Positions 1,255 through 56,815 of a stretch of 64,000 nt of DNA are shown piece by piece. Below the pieces are notes generated by a model. The model was not told the origin of the DNA, did not search any database, and saw only the letters and a list, made by a program, of their open reading frames with translations. Source of the stretch: Camelus dromedarius (lineage: Eukaryota); assembly GCF_036321535.1 (NCBI RefSeq), contig NC_087436.1:32862001-32926000 (forward strand), read 5' to 3'. The position numbers and the translations under genes were made by a program. How positions within the stretch are numbered: the stretch's first letter is position 1; each line of letters starts with the position of its first letter.

Positions 1255-4200
1255 AACATTTATTTCTGTGATGATTAGCTCTATAAGCATCTTTTTATGT
1301 GCCTGTTGGCCATGTGTATGTCTTCCTGAAAAAAATGTCTATTCAAGCTTCTGCCTATTTTTTAATTTTTTTTATATTAATCTTTGTGAGCTACTTATAT
1401 ATTTTGGTTATTAACTCCTTACTGGTCATATGATTTTCAAATATTTTTCCCCCTCTCAGTAAGTTATCTTTTCATTTTGTTGATGTTTTCCTTTCCTGTG
1501 TAAAAAGCTTTTGTATTTAATTAGATCCTATTTGTTCATTTTGCTTTTGTTTCCTTTGCCTTAGGAGACAGATCTTCAAAAAGATTGCTATTTTTGTCAG
1601 AGTGTTCTGCCTATGTTTTGTGGTTCCCAGTCTTACATTTAAGTCTTTAGTCCATTTTGAGTTTATGTTTTACATGGTGTGAGAAAATGTTCTAATTTTA
1701 TTCTTTTATATATGGCTGTCCAGTTTTCCCAGCACCATTTACTGAAGAGACTGTTATTTACCCATTGCGTACTCTTGCCTACTTTGTCTTAGATTAATTG
1801 ACCATAAATGTGTGGGTTAATTTCTGGGTCTCTGTTCTGTTCTATTGGTTTCTATGTCTGTGTTTATGCCAGTACCATACTTTTGCTATTACTGTAGCTT
1901 TGTAGTTTAGTTTCAAATCAAGGAGCATGGTATCACCAGCTTTGTTATTCTTTCTCAGAGTGTTTTGGCTAACTGGGGTCTTTTATATTTCCATACAAAT
2001 TTTAAAATTATTTGTTCTACCTCTGTAAAAAATGCCATTGGTATTTTGATAGGGGTTGCTTTCAATTTGTAGATTGCTTTGGGTAGTATGGTCATTTTAA
2101 CAATGTTAATTCTTTCAGTTCATGAACATGGTATGTCTTTCCATCTGTTTGTGTCATTTTCAATTTCTTCATCCATGTCTTAAAGTTTTTCAATACAGGT
2201 CTTTTACCTCCTGAGTTAGATTTATTGCTAGGTATTTTTTTTTTTTTGATGTGATGGTAAATGGGATTGTTTTCCTAATTTTTCTTTCTCATAGTTTATT
2301 GTTAGTATATAGAAATATAACAAATTTATGTGTATTAATTTTGTATCCTGAAACTTTACCAATTCATTGATGAGTCATGGTAATTTTTTAGTGCCATCTT
2401 TAGACTCATGTTACCTGCAGACAGTGACAGTTTTACTTCTTCATTTCCAATTTGGATTCCCTTTATTTATTTTTCTGGTTTGATTTTCGTGGCTAGGACT
2501 TCAAATACTGTTTTGACTAAATGTGGTGAGAGTGAGCTTCCTTGTCTTGTTTTTGATGTTAGAGAAAAGTACTTTCAGCTTTTCACCATTGAGTATAATA
2601 TTGGCTGTGGGCTTATCATAAATGACCTTTATTATGTTGAGGTATGTTTCATCGGTGCTCACTTTATGGAGAATTTTTAATCATAAATGGATATTGAATT
2701 TTGTTGAAAAGTTTTTATCTGTTGAGATGATTATATGTTTTTTATTCTTCAGTTTGTTAATGTGGCTTATCAGTTTTATTTGTAGATATTGAACCATCTT
2801 TGCATCCCTGGGATAAATCCCACCTGATCGTGGTGTATGATCATTTTAATGTATTGTTGAATTTGGTTTGCTAATATTTTGTGGAGAATTTTGCGTCTAT
2901 GTTCATTGGTGGTATTAGCCTGTAAAATTTTTTTAAACCATTATCTTTGTCTGGTTTTGGTGTCAGAGTGATGCTGGCCTCAATAAAATGTGTTTGGAAG
3001 CATTCTTTCTTCTGCAATTTTTTTTGGAAAAGTTTGAGAAGGACAAGTGTTTATCCTTCTTTGAATGTTAAGTAGAATTCACCTGTGAAGCCACCTGGTC
3101 TTGGACTTTAGCTTTTTGAGGGATGTACTTTTGTTTTTATTATTATTACTGATTTGATTTCATTCCGTTAACTGGTCTTCATATTTTCTATTTCATCCTG
3201 GGTCAGTCTTGAGAGATTGTATATATTTAGGAATTTGTCCCATTTCTTCGTTGTCCATTTTATTGCTGTACAATTGTTTGTAGTAATCTCTTGTGATCTT
3301 TTGTATTTCTGTGGTATCAGTTGCAACTTTTCCTTTTTCATTTCTGATATTATTGGTTTGCCCTCCCTCTTTTTCTCTTGATGAATCTGGCTACAGGTTT
3401 ATCAATTTTGTTTATCTTTTCAAAGAACCAGTTCTTAATTTCTTTGATCTTTTCTATTTTTTTTTAGTCTCTATTTCATTTATTTCTGGTCAGATATTTA
3501 TGATTTCTTCTCTTCTACTAACTTTGGGTCTTGTCTGTTCTTTTTTTTTTTTTTCCCTAATACTTTTATGTATAAGGTAAGGTTGTTTGTTTGAGATTTT
3601 TCTTAGTTCCTGAGGTAGGTTTGTATTATTATAACTTAGAACTGCTTTTGCTACATCCTGTGCATTTTGAATCTTTGTGTTTTGTTTTCCTTTGTCCCCA
3701 AGTATTTTTTAAAAAATTTTATTGTCTCCAAGTTTTTAAAAATTTCTTATTGGATTTCTTAATTGTTCCAGTGATTTTTTAGTAGCATATTGTTTAGTCT
3801 ATATGTGTTTGTGTATTTTGCAGATTCTTTTCTGGTAGTTGATTTCTAGTCTTATACTGTTGTGGTCAGGAAAGTTGGTTGATATGATTTTAATTTTTAA
3901 AAATTTGTTGAGGTTTATTTTCTGGCCTAGCATGTAATCTGTCCTGGAGAACGTTACATGTGCACTTGAAAAGAATGTGTATTCTGCTGCTTTTGGACAG
4001 AATATTTTACATATATATATCCCTTAAATCTAGTTGGTCTAATATGTCATTTAAGTCCACTGTTTTCTTTTTGATTTTCTATTTGGATGACCTATCCATT
4101 GATGTAAGTAGGGTGTTAAAGTCTCTACTATTATTTCTCTCTTTAGGTCTGTAATATTTGCTACGTAAGTTAATATTTGATAAATTGGTGCTCCTATGTT

Positions 4201-4719
4201 GGGTGCATACATATTTATAATTGTTATATCTTCTTTATGGATGGATCTCTTGATCATTTTATACTGTATACCTTTGTCTCTTGCTATAGTTTTTATTTTA
4301 AAATCTGTTTGTCTAAGTATTGTTACCCCAACTTTTTCAAAATTTACATTTGCATAGAATACATTTTTCCATTGCTTAATTTTGTCTTGAATGTATTCTT
4401 TAAATCTGAAGTGTATCTGTTTTAGGCACCACATATAAGGGTCTTGTTTTTGCATCCTTCAGCCACTATATGTATTTGATTGGAGCATCTTGCCCATTTA
4501 CACTTAAATATTGATTGGTATGTACTTATTGCCATTTTGTTAATTGTTTTGGCATTGTTTTGTAGTTATTTTTTCTTCTTTTGACCTTTTGTGATTTGAT
4601 GACTCTCTTGAGTGAAATGTTTGGATTACTTTTTTCTTTTTTTTTTTTTTTTTTTTTTGTTTGTGTCTGTCATAGGTTTTTGGTTTATGGTTACCATGAA
4701 GGTTTTATATAGCAGTCCA

Positions 4720-4759
<40 letters not shown>

Positions 4760-4830
4760 CCTATAATCATTTTAAGTTGCTGAACTCTTAATTTCAAATG
4801 CATTTTGAAAACTCTGCATTTGTACTCTTC
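1255..4830 (-). mobile_element. LINE-1 fragment covering most of ORF2 (EN+RT) and the inter-ORF spacer, decayed
   Basis: ORF 4051-4455(-) QKQDPYMWCLKQIHFR...EDITIINMYAPNIGAP matches the L1 APE endonuclease N-terminus. At 2407-2430(-) LSLSAGNM is the degenerate RT LSLFADDM motif. T-rich antisense L1 text throughout, with many stops and frameshifts. Confidence 0.95.
4720..4762. repeat. Compound (TCTG)n(TCTA)n microsatellite
   Basis: Directly visible tetranucleotide repeats; poly-T run nearby at ~4629-4658. Confidence 0.9.
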
Positions 4831-5024
4831 TTATTTCAGGGAGATTGGTATCAAATCTCCTTTGCTATTTTGTTGTTTCTGTTAAGTATATGCTAATATA
4901 CTACCGCTGTAGGATAATTCTAAGGGGTTGGATATTTTTTCCAGTCAGTTCTTCTATGAAGAGAGTAATTTTCATAGAATAAATTGTCGTATAGGGTAGT
5001 ATTTCTACCCTATAGGCGTACATC

Positions 5025-34200: not shown

Positions 34201-36369
34201 AAAGTAATATAGAACTTAGAGTTTAAGGGCATAAGGACAATCGTGGAGAAAGGTGGATGTGATGCCTTCATGATTGGTACCAGAACAGCAGATGTCATGA
34301 GCCTTTGTTCAGAGGACACATTTGTGCCTCCTGGTCATACTACGTTATGCAAAAGAGGCTGAGTCCTTATTCCCTACTTTCCATCCTATTACTAGTATAT
34401 TTTATTCAAGAAAGATCTCTTTTAATCAAGAGAAAGTCTTTTTTTTTTTTTTTTAACATGGAAAATGACTTTAGAATGATGGTCATTCACCAACTAAAAT
34501 ACTATATTTTCCTAAGTGTTTAATAATGTGTTTTTTACTAATATAAAGTTAGGCTGAGTGACAAAAAGCTTCTGTAAGGATTTAATCACATTGTGGCTAA
34601 AAAAGAGGATCACACATAATTTAGTTATAATAGGGAATCAATATTTTAAAAATCTAGTTGTTTCTTAAAGAAATTTATGAGGATTCACAGTATGATGACA
34701 TCTGTGGTTTTAATACATCCAGTGAAACTTCAAGTCCTTGCAGCAATGTTTCCTTACATTTTTCATGTTATGGCACCCACATAAAATGACAGATCTCTGT
34801 GCCACATTAGAGCAAAGTGCTGTGATCAAAGACTGGGGTGGATTGTTGCCTACTTGCCCTAACAATTGAAAGACTGATGTGTGTGTCCTTAGATTGTACA
34901 TTTCTTTCTATCCTTTCTTATTTTGTTTCCTTATTGTAATTTATTTCAGATCAGTAGGAAAAAGAAGATGTTTTTAATTTGTAGATTTCCCATTGATTTA
35001 AGGGGATATCACTTTAGGCAAATTATTCTCAATTTCAAACCTCATGTTCCAATTAATAGATGTTCTGTTGGTTTAAAAGGTAGGGCTTATTTCTTTAAAA
35101 TCAAATCTAACCATGCTCTGGTTAGCCCACAATGCCTAGCAGAATACCGTCAGCCTGATTAGTAGTCACACCATAGAAACTGATGTTGAAAATAGCACAT
35201 ATAAACCAAAAATTGGAAAAGAAAATAATGTGCTGAAAGTTTGCAATGAATTTCTGCTTCATTTGCTCCAGTTTTAATAGATTCTGTATATTTTGCTATT
35301 TTGAAAAATAAAGTTTATTTTCAGTTAAGTTTCAAAGCTTGGTGACCTTGAACCTTGAATTTTATTATATTAATTTCAGTGTGTTGGTTCTTACAGATAT
35401 TTGAACTATCCCCTTTTCATTTCTCATTTTTCTTTTTTGAAATTTCTTTACTTTCTTTACTCCTTCACTCCCTCCTGACCTCTAGTTCTTTCTCCCTTTC
35501 ATTTTTCTGTCTTTTCCACAAAAAATAGTTTCTGAATTTTTAAGTCAGTCCCTAAAGACAAGAGCAAAAGCCTAGCATTTGAGATGTGTGTGCAGGAGAA
35601 TTTTTAGAAATATGGCAGTTTTTATGTTTCTTTTCATTTTTTTCTTTTTATTTCAGAAAGTTAAAAGTATTGAATTCATTAAGGATGACTTTCATTTGGT
35701 TAACTTCTGTTGTAATAAAAAAATTCATAAAGATGGAAAACCATTCAGAAAGGGAGTTTTATTTAGATTATGAATCAGGTTAACGTTTTCAGTGTATGTT
35801 TTAATTGGAAAGGGTAACCCTTGAACACAGTTTGTATTCATTTGGTTTCTGTTCTTCAAACATTTTACATTTAGCAGCCTCTAGAAGTTATTATTCATTT
35901 ATTTGATTTATAAAATGCACTCATCATCACCCTGGCCCCTGTGTGTATTTACAACAGTGATGCATGAATTTAATGAATACAATGTTGCTTGATTCTCCCC
36001 CAGCAAGTAGATTCCTCACCTCCCTCCTGTAGCCACCATGAAACAGGAGAGTAGCCAATTGGAACAGATGGACCATGCAAATGGGTTTTAAAGGAGAAAT
36101 TTAAATTGTTGTTGTACCTAGAGAGGAAAGGAGTCTATACGAAGTATCTTTCTCTTGCTATTCAGGTGGATGGAACCTTCAACAAGCATGTGCTACTTTA
36201 CCTACACAAGTAAGGTTATCCCTCCTCATCCCGAAAAAGAGCCAGGACAGCAAAAATAAATTTTAGAATATTTCATTTACATATTAGGCAGCCAAGAAAC
36301 ACTGCAGTGCAAGTGACATGAACCAACACAGCCAATATCTTTCAAATGTTGCTTTAAAAACATTTTTTT

Positions 36370-48623: not shown

Positions 48624-48690
48624 GTTAAAACTTGTGAGAAAAACAAAGCACAAAGTAGCATATTTTAAGAAGCATTTTCTCATTGGGTTT
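48624..48690 (+). repeat. 67-bp direct repeat, copy 1 (partner 49879-49945)
   Basis: 66/67 identical to 49879-49945. Confidence 0.95.
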
Positions 48691-49200: not shown

Positions 49201-49878
49201 TCAAACTATCTTCAAAGTAGTTAAAAGTTTCTTTTCACTTAACTTTAACTATTCTGCTTTTTTCTTCCGCACAGTTAGGACAGAAGTGTCGGTCTGCTAT
49301 TCCTGAAATGTAATTTAAACTTACAGTTTAATTATAAACGTAAAGTTTATAATAGCTTAAAAAAGTATCGATTTCCTTCTTTTTTTCAATTATGCTGCTT
49401 TTGTGCTCATCTTTATATGTCAAACCTGTCATTGAAGGATAGCTAGCTTTATTCCTAAGAAACCTTGTCCTGTTTAAGACCCTTCATTTAACCCTTTCTT
49501 GCCAAGCAAATATTTAAAAAGAATCAAAAACAGTGGCACACTGAACTCAGGGCTCTGACTATTGATATCTGAAACTGATTTTAGGACAGTATTTAACAAA
49601 TACTTTACAAATTTGTGTCTGGCAGTTTAATTGAATATTTTCCTAATCATGGAATTAAAGCATCAGCAACTAAGTGTTTATTCATTCTGACTATTTACCA
49701 CCCGCTTGACAGCCTACTTGGGTAAAGGGAGGTAATTTCCCTCTTTGGCTTGTCTTGGCATATGTTTGCTGGCTTTCACTAGCAGCACTATGGAGCAATC
49801 TGAAATAAATTAGTATCAGTGGAATGGAAATCTTAGTGATTTAAGTATCACTGTATACTTAAACATGCTATGTTTGGG

Positions 49879-49945
49879 GTTAAAACTTGTGAGAAAAACA
49901 AAGCACAAAGTAGCATATTTTAAGAAGCATTTTCTCCTTGGGTTT
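49879..49945 (+). repeat. 67-bp direct repeat, copy 2, flanked by an 18-bp inverted repeat
   Basis: Copy of 48624-48690; IR arms 49852-49869 and 49947-49964 (17/18). Confidence 0.95.
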
Positions 49946-52900
49946 AAGTATGTTTAAGTATACACATGTCTAGTATAGACAGCATGTCTGAAGCTCTACA
50001 TTATTCTCCTGGCTGCATCTTCTTGTTCCCTGTCTTTCCAGGTTTCTGCCAATAAAGTCCTAAGTAGTTGACTTTTTACATGAGATCTTGAAATCAAAAA
50101 AGACTTTAAACTTTTGGACAGAAGGATTGTTTTGTTAACCTAATGAAAGTTTAGGTCTTGGTGGGTCCACATTGAAACAGATTAGAGCCTTGGGTAGAAA
50201 ATGGAATTTACTTACTGTTCATCTTAGTCTTAAGTGGAAGAATGTTACTTGCATAAGTTTGTATCTACAGACAAATAAGGCAGGTATTACTTAAAGATTT
50301 TGTGGATAGCATATGGGCAAAATCTAATGGAAACAGTTTCTTTTTGGTCTTGTACTTGGCAAGTACACTAAAAATAGGAAAGGCAGAGAAATGAACACAG
50401 GTTTAGTCTTGTTGACAAGAATCAATTGTTTGATTGTGCATGACAGGTTCTCTTTGCCTAGTGCCCTTTTTTCCTTCTTCTCCTTCTCTTGCCATTTTCT
50501 GTGCCCTCCCTTTTCCCCCTAGCCCTTCTGCTTGGCACAGAACTCTGGATAACCATCAGGGAGGGATAGGTCAAGTTAGAATTGCTGATGGTGAACATAT
50601 TTGTTAGGCAAACATAAGAAGTCATAAACACTGCCTTGCTGGCAAATAGAGAGCTGACGGAAAGGAGACAGATCCTGTGTTTTCACTAGTGCTCTTCTTA
50701 CTCAGAGAGCATAACGCCATTGACAAGTTAGGAAATGCACCTCCCCTCATCCTCTCTTGCCAGGAAAAACACAACCTTTGGAGAATAGGGGCATAAGAAA
50801 CTGCTGGCGTAAGGCCTTTCTGCGCCTGCTGGCACTTGAAGTCTCCATTGCTGTGGTTAGTTTTGCTGCTCATTCTTGGTCTTCGTGCGCGTGACTGGCC
50901 TGATTTATCTTTCATTACTCCAGGGCTGCACAGCTCATGAGGATTTGAGCACAAAAAACTTTCTCCTGAGATTACTGAAAGGTCTTTCCCTCTTGAACTG
51001 AAGCAGAAATAACTTGTGATGCTTTTTGAATTTCAATGATACTTCTACTGTATAGCAGCAGCCGTGTTTTACCAAAACAACAGCAAAAACAACCGCCCTA
51101 ACAGTGATAAAAGCAACTTAGTACCGGAGGTGTAAGTTTAGGTTGCTTTCAGTTTAATTTATATTGTGTCACTTTCATTTTTAATAGATTTTATGATATC
51201 CCTATGAACCATGCAGCCAGTTAGAAATGGGATCTTTCTTAGATCAAGATGAAAAGTTTTCCCCCCCTAGGAAAAGCTATGCAAAGCTAGTAAAAACATT
51301 CAAATTCTTAAATAATCGAATCACCCATTAATCAGAATTTTTTAACCCTGTAATTTTATAAGAAATAGGCAGAAGGACAATAAGTGCCTGTCAATGATGA
51401 CTTTATACTAAAGTCTTGTAACAATAACCTAGTGTCAGTACAGCTCTGTCTCAGTTTCTTAACCTCTGACTTCATAGTTATAGCACCAGAGTTACTGATT
51501 CCCAAAAATATGACCTTAGGGACCATAAGTATCTGAATCATCAAATAGAGATTGAATTATATTCTCCATGCTGTATTTAATAAATCAGGAAAATAGACTA
51601 ATGCCTTTATAAACTTTTTTGATCCTAAGGGTTAAAATAGGAAGGATTTTTCTATTCAATTCTGACTTGACCAGAAAATTCAATGACTTAGAACATCTCC
51701 TTTCCTGAGAATTCCAATCAGTTGCGGTTTTGGAGTATTTACATGGAGTTCACGTTGCATGAGCCTCGTGGGATCATGTTGAACAGGCTCATATTCTCAT
51801 ACATCAGGGAACCTCAGTCTAAAGATGCTAGCTTCGTTCTCCAAAGGTGAGTGAGATTTAACTTCTGCCTTTGGAATCAGACCCATATGTGTATTAACAT
51901 CATCAGGATCCAGTCTCTCTTCCCCCACCACCCAGAACGAGGGAAATACCAAATCTACCCCAAGTTTAGGCTCTTTGGCCTCCTTTTTCTAGGACTCTAG
52001 ATTTTTCTCCCACTAGATTAACTACTTTCTATAGAGATACTAAACCCCTAAGGAAGGCTGTACTTGAAGCCCATTACAGGATAATGTTCCAAGAAAATCG
52101 TTCTTTTGAAGTTTGATTTGAGGCTTATGCTCCTCGTTAATACAGGCAGCGGGAAGGCGGAAGACCTGTCTCTGAAAAGGGCTTGTTATGAGCTGGGGAA
52201 GCAGCTTGAATCCTCAGCATGGAATACAGAGTTAAAAGCAGAGCCAGGCGAGATGTGAGATCAAGCCTGGAATTATGTATCTGTTAGTAATTTCAGACCC
52301 ACGTGGCTAGAGAGCAACAGCATACTTGTGCTCTTGCAGTTTTTTGAAAGACTGATCAGTGTGAGTTCAAGCAGGATTTTAACTTTTGATTTTTATACTA
52401 ATTCTAAGATTTTTCTTTTTTCTAAATTTAGCCATGCAAATATTCCTGTGAAATGCTTGAGTCAGGACACAGCTAGCTATTCTCACATATCATCAGAGTC
52501 TCTCCTCAGCATGAAGAAATAGCAGAGTAGGAAAGAATTCCTTTGGGGATGGAGCATACTTTGTAGTTTTTTTTTTTTTTTTTAAGTGAAAATTATCCAG
52601 GCAGAACTTGGTTGTCACTAAAGATGTTTGTTTTGGTTGGCAATCGGCATGTTTAGTCTGAGAGGCAGGGACTTTGGGCTCAGAGGTAAGGCCTGAAGGT
52701 GCATTGTCTCTAAACGGAGAGGGAGCAGAGAAACTGCTAGAACAAGGCAGTGATGGCTTCCGGTCTGTTTCCTAGTCAGTCTGATTTTTACTTCCTCAGA
52801 TGGAATTTGTTACGAGTGTGAAATGTGTACATGTTGTCCGTATATGCACTTGTATCTAGGCCTAGGGTTACAAGCAGTACTTGGGGTCGAGGTGACAGGA

Positions 52901-55353: not shown

Positions 55354-55447
55354 ATGTCAGATGTCTTGACAGAGTATTAAGGATGGGACAAGAGGCCCAG
55401 AGAGATGGGCATGTTGCAATAGATGTAGCTCGCAAGGCTAGAGACCC
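55354..55447 (+). repeat. 94-bp direct repeat, copy 1 (in ERV-L gag region; partner 56330-56423)
   Basis: 92/94 identical to 56330-56423. Confidence 0.95.
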
Positions 55448-56063: not shown

Positions 56064-56815
56064 AGGGCAGAATTAGAGAGAACACAGTTTACAAGATCAC
56101 CCTTACTTTTGGCACCCATTGCCAGTTCTAGGGTTCCCCAAGCCACCTTGGGTTTCAGTAATTTTCTAGATAAGCTCGTAGAGCTCAGTGAAAGCTGTTA
56201 TACTCACAGTTATGGTTTTATTATAGGGAAATAATTGCAGAGTTTTAATATATAGTTAGGTTTATTATAGGGAAAGGACATATTGGAATCAACTAAGGGA
56301 AGAAATGGATAGGGTAGAGTCCAGGAGGGATGTCAGATGTCTTGACAGAGTATTAAGGATGGGACAAGAGGCCCAGAGAGATGGGCATGCTCCAATAGAT
56401 GTAGCTCGCAAGGCTAGAGACCCGTAGAGGTTCCAGGTGTCCTGTCTCCAGATGTTCTGTCTCCATGTCTACAGTCATGGACAGTGTTAACTCCTCCTGG
56501 CAAAGTTGTGGAACAATGTGTTTGGAATATTGTTAACCAGAGAAACTCACCTGAGCCTTGATATGCAGAGTCTGTTTGGGGAATTCCACGGTTAACTGCC
56601 CACATGGCTGACTTCAGTGGCTAGCGCTTCTGGAGGCTGAGCTGATACCAAATGACTCAAAGCCCCCACTGTAGACCACATTTGTCAGGCTGGTATGTCT
56701 AAGGCCCTCAGCAAATAAAGACATGACATTCCAAAGGCTTAGAGATTAGTTCTCAGAAGGCAAAGACAAATGCCAGAAATCTCTTTGGGCAAGATTTTTA
56801 GTACTTTACTGCACA
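56064..56815 (-). mobile_element. MER21-like LTR inserted in the ERV-L gag/pro junction
   Basis: Right end CTCTTTGGGCAAG...TTTACTGCACA is the reverse complement of the MER21 start TGTGTAGTAAAG. Internal AAAGCTGTTATACTCACAGTTATGGTTTTATTATAGGG. ERV-L text resumes co-linearly at 56816. Confidence 0.82.
56330..56423 (+). repeat. 94-bp direct repeat, copy 2 (inside the MER21-like LTR)
   Basis: 92/94 identical to 55354-55447. Confidence 0.95.

Follow-up and report, generated by a model that had tools for sequence, protein, structure and literature searches.

Results

The window, i.e., the whole 64-kb stretch of DNA analyzed here, is AT-rich (GC 31–45%) and CpG-depleted, with CpG observed/expected ratios of 0.06–0.26 throughout. 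No CpG island was found in the window, Rfam gave 0 matches across the 64 kb, and Pfam gave 0 families for the 8 ORFs tested out of the 42 ORFs of at least 90 aa in the window. Judged by sequence, the window reads as non-coding mammalian DNA, and neither the Rfam search of the window, the Pfam search of 8 of the 42 ORFs nor the CpG-island scan gave any sign of function at the locus described below. In addition, a long pyrimidine tract ending in AG lies on the plus strand at 35615–35660 and is splice-acceptor-like, with no exon identified. A stop-free frame of 135 aa lies on the minus strand at 4051–4458; it had no Pfam match at E 0.01, and we take it to resemble a decayed LINE-1 endonuclease region.

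The locus under study centers on a 67-nt segment (49879–49945; all features below are given on the plus strand) that lies in direct orientation to a nearly identical segment at 48624–48690, 1,255 bp upstream as measured from start to start. The initial annotation had reported such a 67-bp near-identical copy 1.25 kb away, and direct alignment confirmed it: 66 of the 67 bases are identical, the sole mismatch being A at 48682 and C at 49937. A repeat search lengthened the match to 70/73, from 48618 and 49873, so that the donor match may reach back to 48618, at the cost of two more mismatches. At up to 20 mismatches the 67-mer had 2 matches in the window, and the pair is one of only 2 non-simple duplicate pairs seeded by exact 20-mers in the 64 kb. 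We infer that 48624–48690 is the donor rather than the copy, because its surroundings are without the patchwork found at 49879–49945. The last three bases of the copy (49943–49945) are shared with the start of the next piece, giving a 3-nt microhomology. Only one A5/T5 run is present in 49840–49990; it is internal, at 49894, and was brought along from the donor, and no terminal poly(A) was found on the copy.

The patchwork abuts the copy on both sides. An inverted repeat of 18 nt (49852–49869 and 49947–49964; 17/18 identical, 15 unbroken) brackets it, three perfect hairpins with 6-bp stems lie at 49835–49852, 49861–49875 and 49967–49981, and a tandem of 10 nt occurs twice at 49942–49961; all these elements had been listed in the initial annotation and were found at those places. 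A fourth hairpin, with a 9-bp stem and a 6-nt loop (49840–49863), had been missed. The 9-mer at 49840–49848 has two further direct copies, at 49943 and 49953, an inverted one at 49855, and one more copy in the remainder of the 64 kb.

Read along the plus strand, these elements resolve into an ordered series of pieces. The putative original left flank (49835–49848, a boundary from breakpoint scoring that is tied best and not unique) contains two sources: 49835–49840 for a 6-nt snap-back, and 49840–49848 for the 9-mer copies. The insert begins with 4 nt snapped back on 49835–49840, belonging to a 6/6 reverse complement at 49847–49852 that forms hairpin 1. Next comes the left arm of the inverted repeat (49852–49869), holding the inverted 9-mer (49855–49863, hairpin 4) and an inverted 49981–49987. 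The segment at 49870–49878 consists of a 6-nt snap-back, i.e., the arm of hairpin 2, which is the reverse complement of 49861–49866, and then three G, after which the 67-nt copy starts. Beyond the copy, the left-flank 9-mer occurs twice in direct orientation within 49943–49964 (49943–49951 and 49953–49961, 9/9 each), a stretch that includes the right arm. Thereafter come 3 nt matching 49979–49981 and the right-side filler (49965–49978), made of a direct 7-nt copy of 49983–49989, a 6-nt recopy of 49957–49962 and a final snap-back into the right flank (hairpin 3, 49967–49981). The putative original right flank is 49979–49993, again from a breakpoint scoring that is tied best and not unique.

These pieces and their sources are direct observations: 127 of the 130 bases at 49849–49978 have a source either in the donor or in flank pieces of 3–15 nt, with the piece listing omitting 4 positions of this interval, one of which (49952) sits in the right arm. 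The three G in 49870–49878 are the only bases with no local source, and they may be misincorporations inside a 73-nt donor copy. Most pieces are 6–9 nt long, one is 15 nt and one is 67 nt; on the right-hand side of the 67-mer direct flank copies prevail, and on its left-hand side inverted ones. The fillers beside the copy are about 30 and 33 nt long, and their AT contents (63% and 73%) are not clearly above those of the flanks (70% and 60%). When folded as DNA, the minus strand of 49830–49995 gave −18.6 kcal/mol (z −2.4), with 4 of 200 shuffles as good; a functional structure was set aside, as such a fold is expected from the repeats, and we propose that the inverted repeat and hairpins are repair by-products rather than a functional structure.

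An 18-nt inverted repeat that brackets a copied segment, together with a 9-nt direct repeat near both ends, is also what a cargo-capturing mini-transposon with 18-bp terminal inverted repeats might leave, and the 67-mer by itself could derive from a dispersed repeat or a retrocopy. A 9-nt target-site duplication is a trait of Mutator-type families. The 9-nt direct repeat was ruled out as such a duplication, since the arm overlaps it. The bases abutting the arms (49849–49851 and 49965–49967) form no direct repeat and hence no target-site duplication, and the right arm overlaps the left-flank 9-mer while the left arm contains its inverse, suggesting that the arm was built from local flank. At up to 3 mismatches the 18-nt arm had 2 matches in the window, and no further copy of either the arm or the 67-mer was present in the 64 kb. 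As for a dispersed repeat or retrocopy, terminal poly(A) is absent and the window has no Rfam match. We therefore regard this alternative as highly improbable, in line with the lesser likelihood that the initial annotation had given to a mini-element, which the anatomy of the arms bears out.

We compared the density of the patchwork with the rest of the window; note that the site was selected post hoc, so that the following controls overstate significance somewhat. Four non-simple hairpins occurred in only 1 of 6385 sliding 151-nt windows (mean 0.30), which is the locus itself. Windows with three hairpins numbered 17, of which 10 were at the locus and 7 at a microsatellite near 4761–4881. Exact inverted repeats of at least 12 nt within 200 nt were found at the locus only, apart from an AT microsatellite. 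Self-coverage, as measured on the two 44-nt blocks adjoining the 67-nt copy, was 0.97 for 6-mers (median 0.51; matched by 1 of 3176 control positions) and 0.76 for 7-mers (against 0.20; matched by 4 of 3176), and was less extreme for 8-mers (0.44, reached by 28 of 3176). Parsing the locus as copies saved 46 bits (median 18), a value equalled at 2 of 374 random sites, both of which adjoin homopolymer or microsatellite runs. Self-copying is thus much denser in the flanks of the copy than in the remainder of the window.

These controls bear on a simpler explanation, namely plain SDSA capture of the 67-mer, with the hairpins and short repeats pre-existing or arising from separate events. SDSA is the mechanism put forward for repair-mediated duplications (RDs) in PMC2671141, and the breakpoints at our locus are not unique, which leaves some room for it. 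However, the copy sits between the arms of a perfect 15-nt inverted repeat and is flanked immediately on both sides by patchwork, which seldom reaches such density in the rest of the window, so that we consider plain SDSA very unlikely.

The putative breakpoints were obtained by scoring 2916 breakpoint pairs. With each segment priced at 10 or 11 bits, the pair 49848|49979 shared the top score with 4 and 3 others, respectively; at 8 and 9 bits it fell 6 and 2 bits behind the best pair. At every cost it outscored 49848|49962 by 12–18 bits and 49848|49977 by 5–6 bits. Forward and reverse orders of synthesis tied at costs 10 and 11. An extra base match at 49851 to the presumed empty junction was rejected as independent evidence since it is explained by hairpin 1. 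In addition, metagenome contigs scanned with a 22-nt right-flank pattern for stray host DNA from a relative gave 0 matches.

We also asked whether public sequencing runs contain the insertion. For 49500–50400, 24 public-run rows were listed, and 20 of them held 0.98–1.00 of 89 sampled 31-mers; this list ranks the best holders and hence is no measure of fixation. The 20 holder rows come from 8 studies and carry two organism labels. One row from a third organism held 0.00 of the words, which is evidence neither way, and 3 raw-read rows were unindexed. The expected share of the 871 31-mers is 0.85 without the whole insert, 0.88 without 49849–49961 and 0.92 without the 67-mer alone, and one SNP lowers the share by 0.036. 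A point in favor of an assembly artefact is that 14 of these 20 rows may have supplied the DNA of the window. However, the 6 rows unflagged as source (3 studies) also held 0.98–1.00 of the 89 words, 2 of them at 1.00, against about 0.85–0.92 expected without the insert, indicating that the junctions exist in independent data. The insertion is thus probably no assembly error, and we give an artefact a negligible chance.

A second duplicate pair lies 6 kb from the locus. It is a proximal direct duplicate as well (56330–56423 and 55354–55447; 92/94 identical, 976 bp apart), and both segments presumably sit in old LTR-type repeats. The 56330 copy is probably the acceptor, because a 6-nt direct repeat occurs near both of its ends (56314–56319 and 56424–56429) and a 15-nt tandem trails it (56432–56465). 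The presence of this second duplicate in the window suggests that such duplicates are common here.

With the rate of 2.2e-9 cited in PMC2671141, the single mismatch in 67 would correspond to an age of 3.4 Myr (95% range 0.09–19), provided that it did not arise as a copying error. The insertion had been called recent in the initial annotation; with a one-mismatch age of 0.09–19 Myr, the term holds only loosely. This age, like the breakpoints, is an estimate, and the germline fixation given in the initial annotation is putative.

Discussion

A complex templated insertion formed by snap-back and template switching, as had been claimed in the initial annotation, is the best reading of the pieces and their sources, and we are highly confident that the locus belongs to the class of templated insertion scars. 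As for the mechanism, we favor, with moderate confidence, the repair of a germline break by microhomology-primed synthesis (SD-MMEJ/Pol theta-type end joining) plus one longer round for the 67 nt. Specifically, a germline double-strand break near 49848/49979 would have been repaired by repeated short microhomology-primed rounds, one longer round having copied 67 nt from 1.25 kb upstream. Reading the minus strand, the 3′ strand of the right end would first use the opposite end as a template in trans for short tracts, giving the direct copies at 49943–49978. The same strand would then anneal by 3 nt to the 3′ edge of the donor and copy the 67 nt, the template being either a long resected left-end overhang or reached by brief invasion. 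Subsequently, the new strand would release and fold back on itself, giving the 15–18-nt inverted arm, and finally it would be joined to the left end, itself lengthened by 4 nt through snap-back. The net outcome would be an insertion of about 130 bp with little or no deletion, i.e., a neutral repair-mediated duplication. This order of steps is the most economical one, and the order, breakpoints, priming end and enzyme are all putative.

Direct pieces to one side of the long copy and inverted ones to the other are the pattern that iterative microhomology-primed synthesis, in trans and with snap-back, is reported to leave (PMC5728401, PMC7165422, PMC4912351, PMC5068794), and these two classes of piece are described both for Pol theta templated insertions (PMC7165422) and for SD-MMEJ (PMC5728401). 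With priming from the right end, a direct copy from upstream would need only the left plus strand to be single-stranded for ~1.3 kb, which falls within the roughly 2 kb reported for meiotic break resection (PMC7615360). On the other hand, Pol theta tracts are reported to be seldom longer than 10 nt, with distal templates in <0.1% of repairs (PMC7165422), and large remote insertions are ascribed to another mechanism such as strand invasion (PMC4912351). These points count against an account by a single enzyme.

The main rival to Pol theta-type end joining is replication-based template switching (MMBIR/FoSTeS), in which, at a fork that had stalled or broken, one growing strand would switch template several times, locally and once 1.25 kb back, and then return. 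It yields the same anatomy, and sequence alone cannot separate it from end joining. Complex germline events of this kind with up to five templates have been reported in normal people, 26–33 each in two persons (PMC8421209), and minimal or no deletion and pieces spanning the putative junction would suit an intact sister template. However, at least six switches, tracts of 4–15 nt and snap-backs at both ends are more typical of abortive end-joining rounds, and no larger rearrangement lies nearby, the 64 kb containing just 2 duplicate pairs. We consequently consider replication-based switching unlikely, and favor end joining.

A broader proposal can be made for RDs as a class, albeit one that we hold to be speculative and unlikely: their filler may be decodable Pol theta synthesis, their distant donor may be copied by annealing to the resected opposite overhang and not by SDSA, and their 1.2-kb distance may reflect the length of germline (meiotic) resection. 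If this resected-overhang proposal were true, donors would be mostly in direct orientation, a priming overlap would be expected at the break-proximal edge, and the present scar would illustrate it cleanly: the priming side carries direct flank copies, the 3′ edge of the donor overlaps by 3 nt, and the snap-backs lie on the opposite side. Pol theta, template switching and variants <2 kb have already been tied to resection at human hotspots (PMC7615360). In a keyword literature search, 'repair-mediated duplication' together with 'polymerase theta' was not found, nor did a search of titles and abstract openings find camel templated insertions or kilobase-distal Pol theta templates.

The scar is another member of a catalogued class with hundreds of members per mammalian genome, a class that the initial annotation did not name, and it has little significance alone. 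It is a tidy teaching case, in that nearly every inserted base is sourced and the filler is unusually legible, and, scored as present or absent, the insertion would mark the lineage without homoplasy. The scar would gain greater weight only if it formed part of a genome-wide test of the mechanism behind such duplications.

Among known classes, RDs (Pace, Sen, Batzer and Feschotte 2009) are the closest. As reported in PMC2671141, the human genome yielded 824 proximal RDs and the cow genome 202, the count being confined to transposon DNA, and RDs were largely equated with the 'doublets' of Thomas et al. Their mean length is given as 162 bp and their mean distance as 1.2 kb, with a peak near 1,200 bp that is possibly artefactual; filler of 1–68 nt and microhomology of 2–9 nt are described, and poly(A) was absent in 39/39 proximal RDs examined. 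The definition in PMC2671141 calls for a length of at least 50 bp (67 nt with 66 identical at the scar), a distance of >50 bp and <5 kb on the same chromosome (1,255 bp), filler and/or 2–9-nt microhomology at the junction with no poly(A/T) (a 3-nt overlap and ~30- and 33-nt fillers), and a single other copy (one within 64 kb for the 67-mer). However, the copy at the scar is shorter than the RD mean, and its filler is almost wholly decodable as flank copies, a decoding absent from the consulted part of PMC2671141. Furthermore, the RDs of that study were found in annotated transposons with an empty site, whereas the scar is known from its own sequence.

In its filler, the scar is like Pol theta TINS (PMC7165422) and SD-MMEJ products (PMC5728401; PMC4912351), with short direct and inverted copies from within 30 nt, 1–3-nt overlaps and snap-back hairpins; given the putative breakpoints, its flank copies agree with the pieces of at least 5 nt from within about 30 nt that define these products. 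However, its 67-nt tract from 1.25 kb far exceeds what is usual for them in both length and distance. Pol theta products are further characterized by AT enrichment of the inserts relative to the flanks (63% and 73% against 70% and 60% at the scar) and by genetic dependence on POLQ. The scar also resembles germline MMBIR-type insertions (PMC8421209) in having multiple templates, forward and reverse, short junction homologies and no larger rearrangement, but it has more and shorter pieces than those events with their up to five templates, which were proposed for replication forks and not for two-ended breaks. Class 2 templated-sequence insertion polymorphisms (PMC5110952) share the break-patch insertion, microhomology, filler and absence of poly(A), whereas their donors are distant, with an RNA route proposed, and the donor of the scar is adjacent. 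MITEs and Pack-type transposons differ in that their terminal inverted repeats are enclosed by a target-site duplication, a structure that the scar does not have. Altogether, the scar fits best with the repair-mediated duplications, and its filler is typical of iterative microhomology-primed synthesis of the Pol theta type.
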